Origin: a virus
Length of the DNA: 11,843 nucleotides
Reading direction: 5' to 3' (one strand)
Virus record (IMG/VR): IMGVR_UViG_3300045988_062539
Coordinates: 1 to 11,843 of that record
Shown one piece after another: positions 1 to 11,843 of the stretch. The first letter of the stretch is position 1. Each line of letters opens with the position of its first letter. The notes under the pieces are model-generated. The model ran no database searches and had not been told where the DNA came from. It worked only from the letters and a program-made list of their open reading frames with translations. The position numbers and the translations under genes are program-made.

Positions 1-201
1 AAAAGGTACACAAAGCACGCATATTTAACATTTTCCAACTATGTTTTAACATTTGCTAACACACTTTGGCACGGTTTTTGTTGTGCCACATTTACCGTCA
101 TTGTTAACACACTTTAACACATTTAACACACCGTTAACACAGTTAATTTTTTCATAAAAGAAATGTTTCACGTGGAACAGTAAGAGAAGATGTTTCATGT
201 G
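1..201. repeat. Left inverted terminal repeat (perfect part)
   Basis: Positions 1-201 are the exact reverse complement of 11643-11843, checked base by base. The first mismatch is at 202 (g versus a), then imperfect homology with a 1-nt indel runs to about 212. The terminus reads 5'-AAAAGG. Confidence 0.97.
104..140. repeat. Phased TTAACAC direct-repeat array inside the left ITR
   Basis: TTAACAC starts at 104, 114, 123 and 134 (spacing 10, 9, 11 bp). Related TTAACAT at 25 and 46 and CTAACAC at 56. Confidence 0.8.
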
Positions 202-206
202 GAACA
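164..206. promoter_or_regulatory. Two operator-like 16-bp imperfect palindromes (TGTTTCACGTGGAACA and TGTTTCATGTGGAACA)
   Basis: Sites at 164-179 and 191-206, 27 bp apart start to start. Seven of 8 and 6 of 8 positions are self-complementary. The implied consensus is TGTTTCAcgTGAAACA. Confidence 0.6.
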
Positions 207-267
207 AAAGTGAATAATATGTTAAAATAATTTAAATTTAAAATTTTACATTATTTAACAAAAATAA

Positions 268-299
268 TTTGGTGATTTCGTGAAAAAGTCGTATCTTTG
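268..299 (+). promoter_or_regulatory. Bacteroidota-type promoter (-33 TTTG, -7 TATCTTTG) for the left arm
   Basis: TTTG at 268-271, a 20-nt spacer, then TAtcTTTG at 292-299, about 45 nt upstream of the ATG at 344. Matches the TTTG / TAnnTTTG consensus of the Bacteroides primary sigma factor. Confidence 0.65.
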
Positions 300-3716: not shown

Positions 3717-4901
3717 TTAGGCAACAAAGAACACAACAAAGTTTTCGTTTGTGTCATTGAAATAGCCAGCGTCAAACTTGTAATAGTTGTTAAAGAATTC
3801 CGCTTTTGCGTTGTAGTTGGTTGTTACTCGCTTATCAAGGTTTGTTACGCCTAAAGCGTCACGGTCGAACATAACACCCAACACACCGCTTATAGAAACA
3901 GACGCTCCGCTTGCACTCTTTACGTCAATTTTTGACGTGTGCTCAAATGAATAGTCTTTACCTGTTGCTTGCCAACTTGCAACAGTCTCAGCCGTTGGCA
4001 ACAATACGTTGTCGTTATGGTAAGTATCAGCATACAAATAGGTTTTGGCTGCTGCTGCGAAATCAGACAACAAAACGGTGTGCAAAATATCTTTTGGTGT
4101 AAAACGTTCTTTACCGCCAACGTTGAACAGGGTTGAAATTGTCTGCAAACGGTCTGAGTACAGTCCCATAATATAAGCAGCGAAACGGATAAAATCCGGG
4201 GTTGTTATCGCTGCTTTTGCAGTCAATTTTGCCCCTGTCTTATCGTTGTAAAGTTTCAACAGGTTAACGCACCGAACAGTACTTGCACTTGAATAGTCAA
4301 CAGTTTCGTGTGTTGACTCTACGAAACCAAAAGCCTTCTTGTCTGCGTCCAACGTCTCAGCTATCATGTTGTTAATTGTGCGCATAATAAGAGCGTCCAT
4401 TTTGATAGTCATTGATTTGTCAACGGCTGAGTAAATCATTGACAAGAAACCGTTCATTTGTTCCGCACTACTGAAACTTTCTTTTACCTGTCTTTCTGTG
4501 ATAGATACAGGAACCTCAAAAGTTACCTTTGAGTTAAAGAATTTTGCGGTAACGGTCGGTTTGTGGAAAACGTCCTGTTTGTACTCTTTACCGTCCTGTA
4601 AGTTCCAGGTATCGTTTTCTTCTGCATCGGGCACATCAGCCGAAATCTTTTCCAATATAGAACCGAATTCCCATGCGTCCATAAGCACACTTGGAACTTT
4701 ACCCGAATAAGGGCGGTTTACGAAAACCACTTTGCCGATATGGTTTACAAGTGATTTAACATAATTGTCAACTGCGTTTTGGTTGAACACTTCGTTACCC
4801 AAATCGACTAAACCTGTAAGGTCTTCGTTAACAAGTTCTGTATTACCCAAAACCTCACCCGATACGGTGTTAACTAAACTATAAATCTGTTTTACGTTCA
4901 T
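3717..4901 (-). CDS. Major capsid protein (phi29 gp8-like, HK97 fold expected)
   Basis: 394 aa. [22 protein letters not shown] parallels phi29 gp8 [42 protein letters not shown] parallels [22 protein letters not shown]. The position after the portal and a small protein is typical for a capsid gene. Confidence 0.75.
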   Translation of the reverse strand: [394 protein letters not shown]

Positions 4902-4920: not shown

Positions 4921-5490
4921 TTAATAAATATCTACTGTTAACTCTTTTGCAAGTTCTGTGATTACTTGCGTTTTGAAATTAGTTTTGCGCAAACTCATTT
5001 CTTTTTGAATAATTTCACTAACAGGAACACCGCCCGACAAACTGTTCTTAACAACTGTTTTCGTAGCTGTTTCTTGTCGGTTCCCTGTAGAGTTTCTTTG
5101 TTGCTTTGTGTCATTTCCGAAATCTCCATTATTAAATGCTACACTTGAATTGACTGAGTTGTTATTCCCTGTTTCGTCCACGGTGTTATTTACCGTTTCA
5201 CTTGTCTTTTCTGTTACAGGGCTTAACACTTCGTATTGTTTATTAAACACTTGAATCTGTTTTTGCCACTCATCAAATTTAACCGTAATAATACCTTTTA
5301 CAATATCGTTTGCAGTTTCATTTGTGATAGCGTTAACTAGAGTTCGTTCCCCGTATTTGAAACGTAAATCAATATCAATTAGTTTCGGGTCGTCTTCCCC
5401 GAATATTGAATCGTACAAAACAGGAAACAGGGGTTTAAAGATTTTTTCAAATAACCCGTTTTCAGTTGTGAAAAGTTCATTAATTTTCAT
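4921..5490 (-). CDS. Virion morphogenesis protein of unclear role (scaffold or lower-collar/adaptor candidate)
   Basis: 189 aa. The ATG overlaps the portal stop by 11 nt. The central region is low-complexity N/S/T-rich. The assignment rests on position only. Confidence 0.35.
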   Translation of the reverse strand: MKINELFTTENGLFEKIFKPLFPVLYDSIFGEDDPKLIDIDLRFKYGERTLVNAITNETANDIVKGIITVKFDEWQKQIQVFNKQYEVLSPVTEKTSETVNNTVDETGNNNSVNSSVAFNNGDFGNDTKQQRNSTGNRQETATKTVVKNSLSGGVPVSEIIQKEMSLRKTNFKTQVITELAKELTVDIY

Positions 5491-6544
5491 CTTTGTTTTC
5501 TTTTTCTTCTGTTTCTTCTGTTTCTTGCGTTTCTTCTGTTTCCGTTTCTGTTTCTTCTGTTTCTTGCGTTTCTTCTGTTTCTGTTTCTGTTTCTTCTGTT
5601 TCTTGCGTTTCTTCTGTTTCGTTTTCCGTTACAGGGTCAACGTCTTCTGTATCGGTGTGGTAGTGTCCGTCTTCTGTTGCTTGGAGCAACGACAAATAAT
5701 TTTCGTGCTCGATTTTCCAACTTGACCCCAAAGTTACGGTTATTTCCGTACCGAACATTTCGTTAACACGTTTCACACCCTCAACACGTTCTGTTAACAT
5801 CGAATCTACAAAAGGTAATAAAGCGTCTATATTCATTGAAACTTCTTGCGTGTTCAACCGTTCACGTTTCATGTTATAGTTAGCATTCAAACCCAAATCG
5901 TTAAACATGCTAGCTTTGTAGTACTGTAACAGTTCAATTAATTGCCCGATTTGTTGGTTTCCCTGTGTTGGCGGTGTTTGCAAGTTTACACCTTTGAAAA
6001 AGGCATTTTCACCTATTACTGAGAAATCACCGCTCAAAATCTTTTGCAAAAACAATTCTGCACTTTGTTTTGTCTTATCATCGCTAGCAGAAATTAACAT
6101 CGTGATACGTGTTAAAATACTTGCCAAATTAAGCGTTATTGTTGCGTCTGTGTAAAGAACACCATATTTACCGATAATAGGCAAAAGTGAATCTGCAAAC
6201 GGTGTATTGTTGATAACGACAATATCTGAATCAATTTTAAACGTTTTGTTCAAATTTAACCATGGGTTTGTAACCACGTAATCTTTGCCGTGATAATACG
6301 CATCACATTCACCTCCACGTGTACCCTGTAAAGCATACAGTTCCCCGTTAACTTTTGCAATTCCAACGTTACCCGATGTTTGTAGAATCTTTTCAAGTTC
6401 TACAGGGGGCATTGTTTCGGGTGTACCCGTGTACTCAAACATCTTCGAAGTCATACAAAGAACACGTTGCATAAATGTGAATAATGCAGAATCTTTGTCT
6501 TTTACTTCTGTTTGATACCTGTTATATAAGTTTTCTTTTTTCAT
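5480..6544 (-). CDS. Portal / head-tail connector (phi29 gp10-like) with an acidic repeat C-terminus
   Basis: 354 aa. [27 protein letters not shown] parallels phi29 gp10 [52 protein letters not shown] parallels [23 protein letters not shown]. Confidence 0.8.
   Translation of the reverse strand: [354 protein letters not shown]
5505..5622. repeat. 39-bp tandem repeat (about 3 copies) encoding the acidic [13 protein letters not shown] units of the portal tail
   Basis: cttgcgtttcttctgttt recurs at 5524, 5563 and 5602, exactly 39 bp apart. The two full units differ at one base. Confidence 0.9.
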
Positions 6545-6771: not shown

Positions 6772-6802
6772 CAAATATAGCACTTTTATTTGGTATCACA
6801 AA
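6772..6802 (-). promoter_or_regulatory. Internal Bacteroidota-type promoter for the morphogenesis genes
   Basis: The minus strand reads TTTG (6802-6799), a 19-nt spacer, then TAtaTTTG (6779-6772), about 33 nt upstream of the ATG at 6739. Confidence 0.5.
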
Positions 6803-6819
6803 ATAAAACGGGGGGAAAG

Positions 6820-6835
6820 TGTTTCACGTTAAACA
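6820..6835. promoter_or_regulatory. Fifth copy of the ITR palindrome (TGTTTCACGTTAAACA) just upstream of the internal promoter
   Basis: 14 of 16 identical to the ITR site at 164-179, with 7 of 8 positions self-complementary. It lies 18 bp upstream of the -33 box. Confidence 0.55.
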
Positions 6836-6858
6836 TTTTTTAACCCAGTTAACAGATA

Positions 6859-7998
6859 TTAAGCAATAATGTTACTTCTTGCACTTGCCATTAAGTAATT
6901 TCGCACAATTTCACCAATTTCGTTATTCTGATAAAATACCTTATCGGTTGCGAAATATCTAGTAATCTGTGACTCTAGATAAGTCGCAGTACTCAATAAC
7001 TTTCGTTTGTAGTTTGGTTTGCCGTTCATTTGCAAAGAATATATCAAACTTTTGTCTGTGTCCTTTATCGGGGTTGTCTTGTTGTGGATATAAATAAAGT
7101 TATTCACCCCGTTTTCTTTGTCCTCAATCTGTATCACGTTGCCCTGTAATGTCATTTCGTTAAACTGAATATAGAAGACAAACAACACATCGTTCGGTTT
7201 GTACTTTACAGGTAGGTGTGGATATACAGCGAGTTCCCATTTACCGCCCGTAATCATTTGCAAATTTTCATTGTCAAAACAGAAGTATTTGTTACTAGCT
7301 TTCTGTTTAACAATCGTGCTACAGTATTCTACTGCAACCGTTGCACCGTGTTCGCCGAATCTATAAATATCAATTGTTCCCTGTTCCATAACTCGCACCT
7401 GTTTTAAACCCATTTCTGTAAAGTACGGGCAAAACTGATTAACGGTGTTACCTAACATAAATACTTTAACATCGTTTCTCTGTCTGATAATTGTACTCAA
7501 CAGGTTCATATATAACATAAACTCATCGGGTAAATAATAGCGTCTAGTCAAAAATTCATCGAATACAACTGTGGTTATATTCGGGTAACTGCTTGACTTT
7601 TCGTGTTCCTGTTCTGATAAACAGAAACCGAAACAGAACGGTGTGTTATCGGGTACACGTTTTTTGGTTTCAGGGTCATAAGACGAAAGAAACCATTTAC
7701 CCGAAATGTAAAACACTTCGTTAAACTTACCGTCTGTAAGTTCCTGTATCACACCGTTTGCCACATGATTTGCAAATAAACTTTCGGCACGTTTTCCCCT
7801 TAAATCTTCTCGCCAACGTCTAATATATGCCATTTGTTTTCCTGTCTTAAGATATTCTTTGATACCGTACAACAGGGTGGCATAAGTTTTACCGTTTGAA
7901 CGTTCACCAAATATAACGTTATAATCGGCATTCTTTGCCAAAATTCGTGAAAGACTGTAAAACTTTGGCGTTTCTACTTTTTCTTTTTTCTGTTTCAT
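6859..7998 (-). CDS. DNA packaging (encapsidation) ATPase, phi29 gp16-like
   Basis: 379 aa. Walker A is FGERSNGKT (G31-T38; compare phi29 gp16 GARGIGKS). Walker B is TTVVFDEF (D147, E148). The ATG lies 1 nt after the polymerase stop. Confidence 0.8.
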   Translation of the reverse strand: MKQKKEKVETPKFYSLSRILAKNADYNVIFGERSNGKTYATLLYGIKEYLKTGKQMAYIRRWREDLRGKRAESLFANHVANGVIQELTDGKFNEVFYISGKWFLSSYDPETKKRVPDNTPFCFGFCLSEQEHEKSSSYPNITTVVFDEFLTRRYYLPDEFMLYMNLLSTIIRQRNDVKVFMLGNTVNQFCPYFTEMGLKQVRVMEQGTIDIYRFGEHGATVAVEYCSTIVKQKASNKYFCFDNENLQMITGGKWELAVYPHLPVKYKPNDVLFVFYIQFNEMTLQGNVIQIEDKENGVNNFIYIHNKTTPIKDTDKSLIYSLQMNGKPNYKRKLLSTATYLESQITRYFATDKVFYQNNEIGEIVRNYLMASARSNIIA

Positions 7999-7999
7999 A

Positions 8000-10210
8000 T
8001 TATTCTTTTTTTAATCTGATACCAATTAAATAATTTATATAAAGTACTGAAAGACTTAAAGTGTACCCCGTTGGTTCTAAGTGCACCCCTGTTACTGTGT
8101 CGTAACTTGAAATAACGCCTTTATAGTCTTTTATCGTACCTGTCTGTTCATAATCTATATATGTATGAATATTTTTACATGTTGCCGTTGGAGGTATGTC
8201 TAAGTAATTGGTAAAAGCGTCAAAGATACCTTTTTCCCCAAACGTTTCTAACATGTAGGGAATAGCAGTTTTTTTGTTAACACCCGAAACTGTCATACTG
8301 TAATTGTAATTTTTACCGTTAACAGTAAGGGCGTTTTCTTCTTCGACCAGGTACCTTTTAGCACCTAAAGTCTTAAAACGTCTGTATCGTCCTTCGTAAT
8401 CCCAAACGCCAAGCGGTTTAGCTATTCCTTTTATTGTTACGGGTTCAACCTTTTCAAAGGGTATTTTATGAAACTTACAGGCTGCACGTAATTTCTGTTG
8501 CGCTAAATCATTATATAGCTTAAAATATTCTTTGTGTGCATCGCCGTTCATTATCTTAACGCTATCTGTATCACTATATATGTAATCGTCTCCACATTCT
8601 GAAATACCTGTAAACAGGTTTCTTCTTGCATAAGCGGTTACATAAATACCCCAAGGGTAAAAAAGAAATCTGTTTCTGCTTTCGTTGTATTTGCTTAACA
8701 TTTCTAACTGTTTTTCGCCTGTTAGGTGTTCAACGTCCCAATTTTCACCGTTGCACAAAATTTCATCACGTAACGGGTTTGTAACGCACATACCGTAACA
8801 ACTGTTTAGCATTTCTTTGCTATTCAAATACTCAACTTCTTTTCCCTTTACGCCCTTTAGTTTGGTTTTCATTTCATACAGGTGTAAAATTGATAACACA
8901 AACTCAGTCGGTAAATATTCTTTTCTGTAACAAATCATTTTGCCTATTCGTATTTGTTCCCAAGAATAAAACTGTGAAAAAACTTTAAAGTCTATTTCTG
9001 TTATAGTCATACAGATTTTACTAGCACAAACTAAACGCCCGTTATTCTCGGAAACATTTTCTTTAACGAAACACTTACTTACCGATATAGGGGTTTCGTT
9101 TTCTGATTTTGCGAAAATGTTTGTTATCTCAATATCAAATACGCAACAAAATTTACTAGTCATAAAATTAAACTGTTTCATAGATTTAACAGGAACGACA
9201 ACACCCGTACTCATAGGAAATTTCTCCGATACCATAACGTACGGGTAACTACTTGTAAAATCGTAACTGTCTACGTTTTCCATTATTAAATCTGTATACT
9301 TTGCGTTTGCATGAGTAAAACCACCCGAGAAAGCACGTTGCAGCATTTCAAACTCTTCGATACCTGTTATATTTAAATCGTGTATTTTGTCGAAATACTT
9401 AAAGTTTGGTGTTGTCTTGCCTGTTTCTTCGTCTGTTTTCTTGAAACATACAGAACGGCAATATTTACGTACAAAACCTGTTTTTGTCAAAGGTAATTTT
9501 GTTATTCCCTTGTAACGTTCTATTAATTCCTGTACGTAACACATAACCACTTTTATATCGTTCAAACAATAACCAATTTCTTTTTGCGTCAACGGTGTTT
9601 TACTGTGTCGCAATAGACTATAGTCTAAATCCCCGACTAACTTTTCACACTTGTAAGTGTGTAACTGTTCGCCCAACTTTGCCAACGAATAACCCGAAAG
9701 TAAGTAACTGCATCGAAACTCTAAACCTGTTTTAGTTATTCCGTAAATCGGTTTGCGCAAATCTATAGAGAAAACTTTTTCCCAATCTAACAATTCACGG
9801 AAAAACTGAAATTCGTATGCTAAATTGTGAACGTATATAATAATACGTCTTTTTTGGTTTAAGTTTAACAAAATTACTATCTCAGATAACATTTGCAAAA
9901 ACTCTTTCCAGGTTCGACCCATTATGCAATATCCGTTAATTCCAAATTGCCAAACATACATTAAAGAACACTTTTCCATTTTGGTTTCTTTACCGCCTAA
10001 TTTTATATAGCGTTCATAACTGTAAGTTTCCCCGTACTCGTCCCTGTAAAAAGACGTTGTTTCAATATCGAAAGATACAGGAACGTTTAAGAACTTTTCG
10101 CCCTTATTGTTTCCTGTAAAATTTTTTTCGTTCACAGCCAAAGATAAAACCTTTGCAATTTCTTTTGGGGTGTAAACTTCTGCATGTAGTTCAAAGGGTA
10201 TCTTTTTCAT
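8000..10210 (-). CDS. Protein-primed family-B DNA polymerase
   Basis: 736 aa. Exo I FDIETT (D48, E50). Exo II HNLAYEFQF. SLAKL motif. Exo III YCLNDIKV (Y214, D218). Motif A DFTSSYP (D317). Motif B KEMLNSCYG (K465). Motif C YSDTDS (D547, D549). KxY as GAKRY (K618). Confidence 0.95.
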   Translation of the reverse strand: MKKIPFELHAEVYTPKEIAKVLSLAVNEKNFTGNNKGEKFLNVPVSFDIETTSFYRDEYGETYSYERYIKLGGKETKMEKCSLMYVWQFGINGYCIMGRTWKEFLQMLSEIVILLNLNQKRRIIIYVHNLAYEFQFFRELLDWEKVFSIDLRKPIYGITKTGLEFRCSYLLSGYSLAKLGEQLHTYKCEKLVGDLDYSLLRHSKTPLTQKEIGYCLNDIKVVMCYVQELIERYKGITKLPLTKTGFVRKYCRSVCFKKTDEETGKTTPNFKYFDKIHDLNITGIEEFEMLQRAFSGGFTHANAKYTDLIMENVDSYDFTSSYPYVMVSEKFPMSTGVVVPVKSMKQFNFMTSKFCCVFDIEITNIFAKSENETPISVSKCFVKENVSENNGRLVCASKICMTITEIDFKVFSQFYSWEQIRIGKMICYRKEYLPTEFVLSILHLYEMKTKLKGVKGKEVEYLNSKEMLNSCYGMCVTNPLRDEILCNGENWDVEHLTGEKQLEMLSKYNESRNRFLFYPWGIYVTAYARRNLFTGISECGDDYIYSDTDSVKIMNGDAHKEYFKLYNDLAQQKLRAACKFHKIPFEKVEPVTIKGIAKPLGVWDYEGRYRRFKTLGAKRYLVEEENALTVNGKNYNYSMTVSGVNKKTAIPYMLETFGEKGIFDAFTNYLDIPPTATCKNIHTYIDYEQTGTIKDYKGVISSYDTVTGVHLEPTGYTLSLSVLYINYLIGIRLKKE

Positions 10211-10854: not shown

Positions 10855-10899
10855 ATGAAACAAAAACAGGGATAACAATAAAACTACTGTTACCCCTGT
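10855..10899 (-). terminator. Strong intrinsic terminator/attenuator between the early small genes and the TP-polymerase genes
   Basis: The minus-strand RNA forms a 12-bp stem (acaggggtaaca with tgttatccctgt, one G-U) and a 10-nt loop, followed by TTTTTGTTTCATTT. It ends about 16 nt before the TP ATG. Confidence 0.7.
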
Positions 10900-10926: not shown

Positions 10927-11292
10927 CTACTTGTCTACAAAGGTAATACCATAACACTTCTTTGCATGTGAATCGTATTCATAAATTGTGTAACCTACCT
11001 TGTTTTCCTTGATAGCCTCAACCGCATCACTATCTGCGAGAATATCTCGTATCGTGTCAGCTGTGAATTGTGGCAAGTTCACCAAACGTTTATTTTCTGC
11101 GTCAATTATTACAGGTGAATCACCCAACTGCGATTTGTGGACGTACAAACCATTGATAGGATGTACCACATCTGCGCCACCGTCATTTTTACTGTTGTAG
11201 ATGTCTATCAACTTTACAAACGGAAAATCGGTTGTATCAATACCGAAACTTGTTTTGTTGAACTTACTTGCAAAACTAAAACCTTTAACCAT
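10927..11292 (-). CDS. Hypothetical protein, candidate phi29 p5-like single-stranded DNA-binding protein
   Basis: 121 aa (phi29 p5 is 124 aa), in the syntenic position upstream of the TP. The C-terminal half LVNLPQFTADTIRDILADSDAVEAIKENKVGYTIYEYDSHAKKCYGITF loosely parallels p5 [48 protein letters not shown]. Weak, from memory. Confidence 0.35.
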   Translation of the reverse strand: MVKGFSFASKFNKTSFGIDTTDFPFVKLIDIYNSKNDGGADVVHPINGLYVHKSQLGDSPVIIDAENKRLVNLPQFTADTIRDILADSDAVEAIKENKVGYTIYEYDSHAKKCYGITFVDK

Positions 11293-11337
11293 AACTTAAA
11301 TATTTAACGTTAAACTTGTTGTACCTGTGCACAGGTG

Positions 11338-11554: not shown

Positions 11555-11585
11555 CAAAGATACGTCAAATTTATGAATCCACAAA
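11555..11585 (-). promoter_or_regulatory. Bacteroidota-type promoter (-33 TTTG, -7 TATCTTTG) for the right arm
   Basis: The minus strand reads TTTG (11585-11582), a 19-nt spacer, then TAtcTTTG (11562-11555). This is the same -7 octamer as the left promoter. Confidence 0.65.
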
Positions 11586-11637
11586 ATTATTTTTGTTAAA
11601 TAGTGTTAAAGAATTAATTTAATAGTTGTTAACACTT

Positions 11638-11680
11638 TGTTTCACATGAAACATCTTCTCTTACTGTTCCACGTGAAACA
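11638..11680. promoter_or_regulatory. Two operator-like palindromes at the right end (TGTTTCAcaTGAAACA and the mirror of 164-179)
   Basis: 11638-11653 is a perfect 7+7 inverted repeat around a 2-nt centre. 11665-11680 is the ITR mirror of 164-179. Confidence 0.6.
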
Positions 11681-11843
11681 TTTCTTTTATGAAAAAATTA
11701 ACTGTGTTAACGGTGTGTTAAATGTGTTAAAGTGTGTTAACAATGACGGTAAATGTGGCACAACAAAAACCGTGCCAAAGTGTGTTAGCAAATGTTAAAA
11801 CATAGTTGGAAAATGTTAAATATGCGTGCTTTGTGTACCTTTT
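11643..11843. repeat. Right inverted terminal repeat (perfect part)
   Basis: Exact reverse complement of 1-201. Confidence 0.97.
11704..11740. repeat. Phased GTGTTAA array inside the right ITR (mirror of 104-140)
   Basis: Mirror image of the left array by ITR symmetry. Confidence 0.8.

Follow-up and report, generated by a model that had tools for sequence, protein, structure and literature searches.

Genome organization and the five palindromic sites

We analysed the whole of the IMG/VR virus record IMGVR_UViG_3300045988_062539 (11,843 bp, hereafter the window), which is the complete linear genome of a minimal phi29-like podovirus. The analysis centred on a 16-bp palindrome resembling the bacterial centromere site parS, which occurs five times in the window: twice in each inverted terminal repeat (ITR) and once downstream of the packaging ATPase gene. 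The genes are arranged in a left operon (96-aa and 64-aa proteins and an M15 endolysin), a structural or late operon (holin-like protein, connector, capsid protein and tail protein) and an early or replication operon (55-aa and 121-aa proteins, putative terminal protein, protein-primed DNA polymerase and gp16-type packaging ATPase). Each of the three operon starts carries a composite promoter of the Bacteroidota type, with TTTG at −33 and TAnnTTTG at −7. The located features are listed in Table 1.

Table 1. Positions of the candidate parS sites, terminal repeats, promoters and genes in the window
Feature	Position	Strand	Sequence or remarks
Left ITR	1–208	+	Starts at physical end, 5'-AAAAGGTACAC
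Candidate parS, outer left	164–179		TGTTTCACGTGGAACA; 1 mismatch to perfect palindrome
Candidate parS, inner left	191–206		TGTTTCATGTGGAACA; 2 mismatches; holds ITR mismatch 202
Left-operon promoter	268–299	+	Bacteroidota-type TTTG-N20-TAtcTTTG
First left-end gene, 96-aa protein	344–634	+
Tail/receptor-binding candidate, 616 aa	1348–3198	−
Phi29_MCP capsid protein	3717–4901	−
Connector	5480–6544	−
Late-operon promoter	6772–6802	−	Bacteroidota-type TTTG-N19-TAtaTTTG
Extended imperfect palindrome around internal site	6810–6847	−
Candidate parS, internal	6820–6835		TGTTTCACGTTAAACA; 24 nt past gp16 ATPase stop; 17 nt upstream of late-promoter −33 element
gp16-type packaging ATPase	6859–7998	−
Protein-primed family-B DNA polymerase (PolB)	8000–10210	−
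Early-operon promoter	11555–11585	−	Bacteroidota-type TTTG-N19-TAtcTTTG
Right ITR	11636–11843	−	Mirror of 1–208
Candidate parS, inner right	11638–11653		TGTTTCACATGAAACA; 1 mismatch; 7+7 inverted repeat around CA
Candidate parS, outer right	11665–11680		TGTTCCACGTGAAACA; mirror of 164–179

A first-pass annotation had described the five sites as operator-like and had called for a scan of both strands and for a check of conservation in relatives. When both strands were scanned against the consensus of the window sites, TGTTTCACGTGAAACA, exactly five matches were obtained, both with up to two and with up to three mismatches allowed, and all of the coordinates and sequences given by that annotation were borne out. 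The numbers expected by chance are 0.02 (two mismatches or fewer) and 0.21 (three or fewer), and five matches were reached in none of 200 shuffles. The mismatch distribution is bimodal, with no site at three mismatches and three weak ones at four. Because the ITR copies are not independent, the number of independent sites is three, which is still far above chance. Three finer details of the annotation also proved correct. The inner right site is a perfect 7+7 inverted repeat around CA; the single base by which the ITR arms differ (position 202; G on the left, A on the right) falls in the inner site; and the motif has no other CACGTG-centred copy, since the one extra CACGTG, at 6316, is not embedded in it.

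Identity of the sites with chromosomal parS

All five sites match canonical parS with one or two mismatches. The consensus of chromosomal parS, the sequence bound by ParB/Spo0J, has been given as TGTTNCACGTGAAACA (Bacillus, Corynebacterium and Burkholderia chromosome I) or as TGTTTCACGTGAAACA, which is the very consensus of the window sites. Published variants (TGTTNCACGTGAAACA, TGTTCCACGTGGAACG and t/cGTTt/cCACGTGAAAca) vary at positions 12 and 16 and at the symmetry partners of these positions, 5 and 1. Furthermore, the outer left site, TGTTTCACGTGGAACA, reads on the opposite strand as TGTTCCACGTGAAACA, a parS oligonucleotide from published ParB studies. Searches with the parS consensus, two mismatches being allowed, have served to find parS in gut bacteria, among them Bacteroides caecimuris, for which ParABS has been reported.

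An exact-match scan of bacterial genomes (one genome per species) found parS at at least 120 loci. Among the matches listed, the taxa represented include Actinomycetota, Alpha- and Betaproteobacteria, Bacillota, Bacteroidota and Spirochaetota, two or more sites are present within 8 kb at 70 of the 120 loci, and exact parS adjoins the origin-proximal gene gidA/mnmG in Prevotella and Chryseobacterium. On the basis of this sequence identity, the five palindromes are probably parS centromere sites of the chromosomal type, a reading that we hold jointly with that of host ParB as their binder.

Operators of the CRP/FNR, LacI and LexA types were also considered for the 16-mer and were rejected, as their half-site orientation and sequence do not fit. 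In addition to the full sites, approximately 10 parS half-sites (GTT[T/C]CAC) are present elsewhere in the window, giving 17 in total versus approximately 4 in total expected from a first-order Markov model; this enrichment is modest, and the expectation takes no account of codon bias. ParB of Pseudomonas aeruginosa binds such heptamers.

Conservation of the sites in related phages

The comparison set consisted of 80 IMG/VR relatives whose polymerases are 87–96% identical. The conservation check gave a uniform result: the sites are kept in all 80 relatives wherever the contig reaches the region, as two to five copies per terminal repeat and one copy after the packaging-ATPase gene, so that the copy number is expanded in relatives. 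The terminal sites all have the same inward orientation, with spacings of 26–31 or 35–39 bp. From 162 distinct ends, 313 terminal sites were collected; they reduce to 14 sequences, whereas the 170 spacers between them have diverged freely, into 84. Variation in the terminal sites is confined to positions 8, 12 and 16, of which 12 and 16 vary in chromosomal parS too. The internal sites (n = 73) also vary at positions 5 and 11 (∼11%), with rarer changes elsewhere, and 48 of the 73 are perfect copies of TGTTTCACGTGAAACA. The CACGTG core is not strictly kept, because positions 8 and 11 vary: a C-to-T change at position 8 breaks it in 4% of the terminal and 11% of the internal sites, and the G at position 11 is replaced by T or A in ∼11% of the internal sites, including the internal copy of the window (G to T). 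The sites are under strong purifying selection. They extend beyond the comparison set: two parS are present in the end of the sister clade L267 (polymerase 67% identical), and the much more distant clade L318 (polymerase 44%) carries a single perfect parS in each ITR, at position 132.

The changes within the sites are one-sided and never compensated on the opposite arm, indicating that the sequence, not the pairing, is conserved. This bears on the possibility that the palindromes are only nucleic-acid structures, such as a terminator hairpin, a cruciform or a transcript structure, and are bound by no protein. In the relatives' consensus sequence, a hairpin with G5...C5 (GGGGGTTAAAAA-parS-ATTTTCCCCC, then GTTTTATTT; folding free energy −21 kcal/mol, z-score −2.7) is capped by the internal site and resembles a terminator at the end of the early operon, and two adjacent ITR sites, if transcribed, form a 16-bp stem (z-score −3.15), which is a trivial outcome of palindromy. 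However, the internal hairpin is degenerate in the window (folding free energy −7, z-score +0.65), the ITR sites have no U-tract, and a purely structural role leaves the exact identity with parS unexplained. Together with the one-sided variation, these points make such a role extremely improbable in our judgement. The terminator-like hairpin at the internal site was not among the hairpins listed by the consensus scan.

Candidate binding proteins

Searches of Pfam and PHROGs gave no match for any open reading frame (ORF) of the window to ParB, a helix-turn-helix, phi29 p4 or any other DNA-binding family, and all of the small ORFs were without a match in Pfam (to E = 10), PHROG and PDB sequence searches. 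The phage encodes no recognizable ParB. Among its small proteins, that of 55 aa is the most conserved (median identity 96% among relatives) and is confidently predicted to be a two-helix hairpin without a significant Foldseek match; for the 121-aa protein, single-sequence AlphaFold prediction gave no usable model (pLDDT 37). Other phi29-like phages that bear parS, L318 among them, lack the small proteins of this clade, which leaves host ParB as the only factor common to these phages.

The first-pass annotation had proposed a dimeric phage regulator analogous in role to phi29 p4. One part of that proposal is supported, namely that the sites are conserved and lie, as sites for a predicted dimeric DNA-binding protein, in the three promoter-bearing non-coding regions; its attribution to a phage-encoded protein, and the likeness to p4, are not. 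Operators for a phage-encoded, functionally p4-like regulator that coordinates the early/late switch would explain why sites lie upstream of all three promoters, and the 55-, 64- and 121-aa proteins are indeed conserved in the clade and missing in the parS-free Astrithrvirus relatives. However, the 16-mer is identical to a host-type centromere sequence shared across phyla, and the same site is present in phi29-like phages without these small proteins. Moreover, neither a p4 nor any other DNA-binding domain was detected, the 55-aa protein being a bare helical hairpin, the terminal sites stand at no fixed distance or phase from the promoters (see below), and the p4 box, CTTTTT-N15-AAAATG, is unrelated in sequence to the sites. 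Such a regulator therefore seems improbable to us. A phage protein might still recognize parS in addition to ParB.

parS in other phages

Exact parS was found on at least 120 IMG/VR contigs, compared with 12 and 3 contigs for two control palindromes of the same composition with a central CG. Hallmark proteins of the phi29 type are encoded on 27 of the 120 parS contigs listed, often with two to six sites, and on none of the 15 control contigs; parS recurs in several phi29-like lineages. In those phi29-like contigs, 33 of the 58 sites lie inside long ORFs, which make up 89% of the bases, so that parS favours non-coding DNA yet is not confined to it. The genome of phi29 has five matches, four of them exactly TGTTTCACGTGGAACA. 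Its five parS sites have been described as a means, through host Spo0J and in combination with Spo0A boxes, of capturing its DNA in the spore (Meijer et al. 2005, as cited in PMC2731898 and PMC9437464).

Among phi29-like phages, the trait would be frequent without being universal. In the Astrithrvirus phages that infect Salmonella and Pectobacterium, there is no site within four mismatches; chromosomal par genes are reportedly missing from Enterobacteriaceae, to which the Salmonella host belongs.

MT836125, a phi29-like phage of Firmicute style from human faeces, has parS at 10978–10993 and 12024–12039. Each lies within a repeated ∼70-bp unit that is upstream of early genes, and Spo0A-box-like TGTCGAA motifs occur nearby. 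The same genome encodes a 100-aa stand-alone C-terminal DNA-binding domain of Spo0A (11017–11319, minus strand; Spo0A_C, Pfam E 1.3e-13). Truncated phage spo0A genes have already been described (PMC10294663). The window shows no enrichment of Spo0A boxes, with a single TGTCGAA, inside the polymerase gene, versus 1.7 expected.

Position of the sites relative to promoters

Relative to the inferred transcription start, the parS centres are ∼107 and ∼134 bp upstream at the left promoter and ∼62 bp upstream at the late promoter. In relatives, the distance between the innermost terminal site and the −7 box ranges from 82 to 110 bp and its phase is not fixed, whereas the distance between the internal site and the −7 box is fixed at 47–49 bp (73 relatives). 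Since almost all of the non-coding DNA is in the three intergenic regions, the co-location of sites and promoters is weak evidence of regulation.

These distances bear on an alternative in which host ParB binds the sites and the selected function is regulatory. ParB spreading over the promoters would silence or delay transcription, providing a 'lytic deferment' switch that is read from the cell-cycle or ParB state of the host. We give this a small but real chance; it is compatible with, not exclusive of, the partition role that we favour. Every promoter-bearing non-coding region also has parS, and the fixed position of the internal site would suit such a switch. According to the account in PMC5521831, raised ParB strengthens the repression of promoters by parS3 and parS4 in Pseudomonas aeruginosa, and the literature describes other phages that co-opt host Spo0A, CtrA or LexA to defer lysis. 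However, the terminal sites are unphased, and 33 of the 58 sites in the phi29-like contigs listed are inside long ORFs, as most of the phi29 sites are inside genes; loading sites fit this better than operators.

Terminal repeats and genome ends

In several relatives' contigs (ends of L008, L066 and L072), an Illumina adapter (…GTGACTGGAGTTCAGACGTGTGCTCTTCCGATCT) is fused directly to AAAGGTACAC; the window therefore begins at a real DNA end and is a full-length genome. The physical end (1–12 and 11832–11843 in the window) is 5'-A(3–6)GGTACAC, and the A-run varies from three to six across relatives, which is what sliding-back protein-primed initiation predicts. From the end inward, the left ITR contains a sigma54-like element (TGGCACGGTTTTTGT) at 67–81, TTAACAC repeats at ∼100–141 and then the two parS.

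The presence of parS in the ITRs raises the possibility that the terminal sites are auxiliary origin elements, at which ParB, ∼130–200 bp from the end, would open or organize the end or recruit the complex of terminal protein and polymerase. The ITRs of the window clade, L267 and L318 have their sites about equally far from the end, and the sites are surrounded by further conserved repeats (the TTAACAC units and TGGCACG-N4-TTG). Set against this, the internal site is left unexplained, the phi29 sites are all outside the terminal few hundred bp, and the ITRs are almost the sole non-coding DNA in the genome, with site copy number and spacing varying freely. An origin function of this kind seems quite improbable.

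The element TGGCACG-N4-TTG[C/T] is conserved and faces inward in each ITR (67–81, plus strand; 11763–11777, minus strand). Its sequence fits the sigma54 −24/−12 consensus, TGGCAC-N5-TTGC, for which chance predicts 0.02 matches. Of the 162 distinct ends of relatives, 98 carry the element, and the sister clade L267 has three copies of it. It may represent a promoter, a repeat bound by a protein or an origin component. A sigma54 enhancer reading of the 16-mer itself, which fits the NifA-type TGT-N10-ACA and has the sigma54-like element 66–118 bp farther out, was dropped once the 16-mer was recognized as parS. Repeats of ∼10 bp with TTAACAC extend over ∼24–141 and are densest at 100–141, in the stretch that separates the sigma54-like element from the first parS. 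Because the TTAACAC copy number varies among relatives, the distance between that element and parS changes in steps of ∼10 bp (66, 76, 86, 96, 106 and 116). By analogy, this suggests that the tract is phased, bent or coated with protein, in a role that may be comparable to that of the p6 binding region of phi29.

A structured RNA in the ITR was considered and rejected, as the strong fold of 90–270 is merely both palindromes pairing together; no Rfam family, either packaging RNA (pRNA) or another known RNA, matched the ITR at E-values up to 1.

Other features of the genome and its relatives

The closest cultured relatives are the 11–12-kb Astrithrvirus phages of Gammaproteobacteria, with capsid proteins ∼57% and polymerases 41–47% identical to those of the window. 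A Shine–Dalgarno sequence is present in none of the 14 genes; the Bacteroidota-type host signals contrast with the Gammaproteobacteria infected by the nearest cultured relatives. Proteins identical to those of the window are encoded in human-gut and pig-gut assemblies. A megablast search of GenBank phages gave no match to the window, and the phage was present in none of the 120 listed bacterial-genome loci with exact parS. No contig of >20 kb carrying the element was found in 184 collection blocks; as it never occurs on contigs of this length, the element is not integrated.

Two genes vary conspicuously among relatives. The 616-aa tail/receptor-binding candidate is only ∼35% identical among relatives whose polymerases are ∼91% identical, and the 96-aa left-end gene is present in only 1 of 80 relatives; both loci are replacement hot spots, presumably for host range and host takeover. 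The C-terminal tail of the connector (5480–5630, minus strand) consists of acidic units in tandem, (ETEETQETEET)n, and the DNA that encodes it has repeats of 39 and 9 bp. Strong terminator hairpins are located at 1313–1345, between the convergent endolysin and tail genes, and at 10866–10899, in the early operon between the genes for the 121-aa protein and the putative terminal protein; the latter could act as an attenuator. No Rfam pRNA was detected in the window despite the gp16-type ATPase gene, and Rfam gave only weak matches, over the terminator at 1307–1426.

Proposed role of the sites

We propose that the sites are bound by the host's own ParB, a Spo0J homologue, and not by a phage regulator; taken together with the identification as parS, this is our favoured reading and one in which we have a fair degree of confidence. 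In the proposed mechanism, dimers of host ParB would nucleate at the two parS of each terminal repeat and at the internal parS, close into clamps bound to cytidine triphosphate (CTP), slide outward and coat the 11.8-kb genome. ParB-CTP accumulates solely on DNA with blocked ends, and the terminal proteins covalently attached to both 5' ends would therefore serve as the roadblocks, making the linear DNA a 'closed' substrate that retains the clamps. Host ParA and ParB, possibly with SMC, would then treat the complex of ParB and phage DNA like a small origin region. As a result, the unintegrated genome would be partitioned or positioned in growing cells and kept through a delayed or carrier-state infection, a retention that would be the counterpart, in a non-sporulating host, of the spore entrapment of phi29. 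A side effect, which might be an additional or alternative role, would be a damping of the three adjacent promoters. The steps that we infer are thus ParB binding, clamp retention by the terminal proteins and the outcome for partition or persistence.

Binding of ParB could also serve a different end. As a ParB sponge, hundreds of genome copies with five sites each would titrate ParB and thereby disturb host segregation, SMC loading or division. Such an effect would draw on the multiple predicted high-affinity sites per genome and on their expanded copy number in relatives. However, no finding speaks for it specifically, the dispersed single sites of other phi29-like phages would be left unexplained, and in the phi29 precedent it is the phage genome itself that is segregated. 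We hold a sponge to be very improbable.

Several points weigh against partition by host ParB. The 55-, 64- and 121-aa proteins co-occur with the sites, and no homologue of them exists in the parS-free Astrithrvirus relatives. Among the latter, the phages of Acinetobacter and Vibrio are without a site within three mismatches (the Vibrio record being incomplete). Acinetobacter and Vibrio have ParABS, and the sites are thus not obligatory for this type of phage. The host is placed in Bacteroidota solely by promoter type, the absence of Shine–Dalgarno sequences and gut origin. Furthermore, the partition or carrier-state outcome would be an extrapolation from the biology of phi29 and of plasmids, and the genome shows no other hallmark of persistence.

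It is conceivable, if on balance doubtful, that very small, apparently virulent phi29-like phages of non-sporulating gut Bacteroidota persist as linear mini-replicons, capped by terminal proteins and segregated by host ParABS through parS arrays in their ITRs. This would be a carrier lifestyle that needs neither integrase nor repressor, and the hijacking of ParB would then be a lineage-wide trait across phyla and not a peculiarity of sporulation in phi29. On the favoured reading, an unspecified 'phage operator' gives way to a specific and testable interface, host ParB on phage DNA, and the phi29/Spo0J paradigm reaches uncultured gut phages of non-sporulating hosts. Because the inferred hosts do not sporulate, spore entrapment cannot be the whole story, and partition, positioning or ParB-mediated silencing is pointed to as a general strategy of minimal phages. 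This may help explain the coexistence in the gut of such phages and their hosts without lysogeny genes. The genome also offers a natural system for the behaviour of ParB-CTP clamps on protein-capped linear DNA, and the ITR parS array is a possible plasmid-stabilizing cassette in Bacteroidales.

Comparison with known systems

The closest parallel is provided by the Bacillus phages phi29 and Nf, whose parS sites are used with host Spo0J (as summarized in PMC2731898 and PMC9437464). Like the window phage, they have a protein-primed linear genome with approximately five host-type parS and no ParB of their own. The 16-mer TGTTTCACGTGGAACA is identical in phi29 and the window. In phi29, a parS (17243–17258) starts right after the stop of gene 16 (17242), and the internal site of the window likewise trails gp16. 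Both of these sites lie by a terminator or terminator-like hairpin, a parallel that could be ancestral or convergent. In other respects, the two genomes differ. The sites of phi29 are dispersed, mostly intragenic and absent from its six-bp ITR, whereas those of the window are all non-coding, four of the five being located in 208-bp ITRs, and form tandem arrays in relatives. In addition, parS in phi29 is linked to Spo0A boxes and to entrapment in the spore; in the window, such boxes are not enriched. Because the inferred Bacteroidota host of the window phage does not sporulate, this known purpose cannot apply to it.

The window agrees with the chromosomal ParABS systems in the 16-bp sequence itself, in the positions at which variants are tolerated (5/12 and 1/16) and in the clustering of multiple sites. 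Unlike them, the window has its five sites in an 11.8-kb, protein-capped linear virus genome with no linked parAB. Centromere sites on extrachromosomally kept phage genomes are also found in the plasmid-prophages P1 (parS/ParB) and N15 (sopC), the latter with a linear genome and several dispersed sopC sites in promoter regions. Both of these are temperate phages that have a ParA/ParB pair of their own (SopA/SopB) and private site sequences, whereas the window phage encodes neither ParA nor ParB and uses a host-type site sequence.

The p4 system of phi29 is similar in that palindromic sites lie by early and late promoters of a phi29-like phage. It differs in that the window has no p4 homologue, and the sequence and geometry of its sites are unrelated to those of p4, the window sequence being shared across many bacterial phyla. 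In the adenovirus ITR, sites for NFI and Oct-1 constitute an auxiliary origin whose stimulation of replication has been demonstrated. The window resembles adenovirus in having sites for a putative host protein inside the ITR of a protein-primed linear genome; the proteins are unrelated, and a stimulation of replication in the window phage is a minor hypothesis. The use of parS and Spo0J was thus already known from phi29. The novel aspects are the parS arrays in long ITRs, their occurrence in a gut phage of the Bacteroidota type without a link to sporulation, and the apparent breadth of parS in uncultured phi29-like phages.

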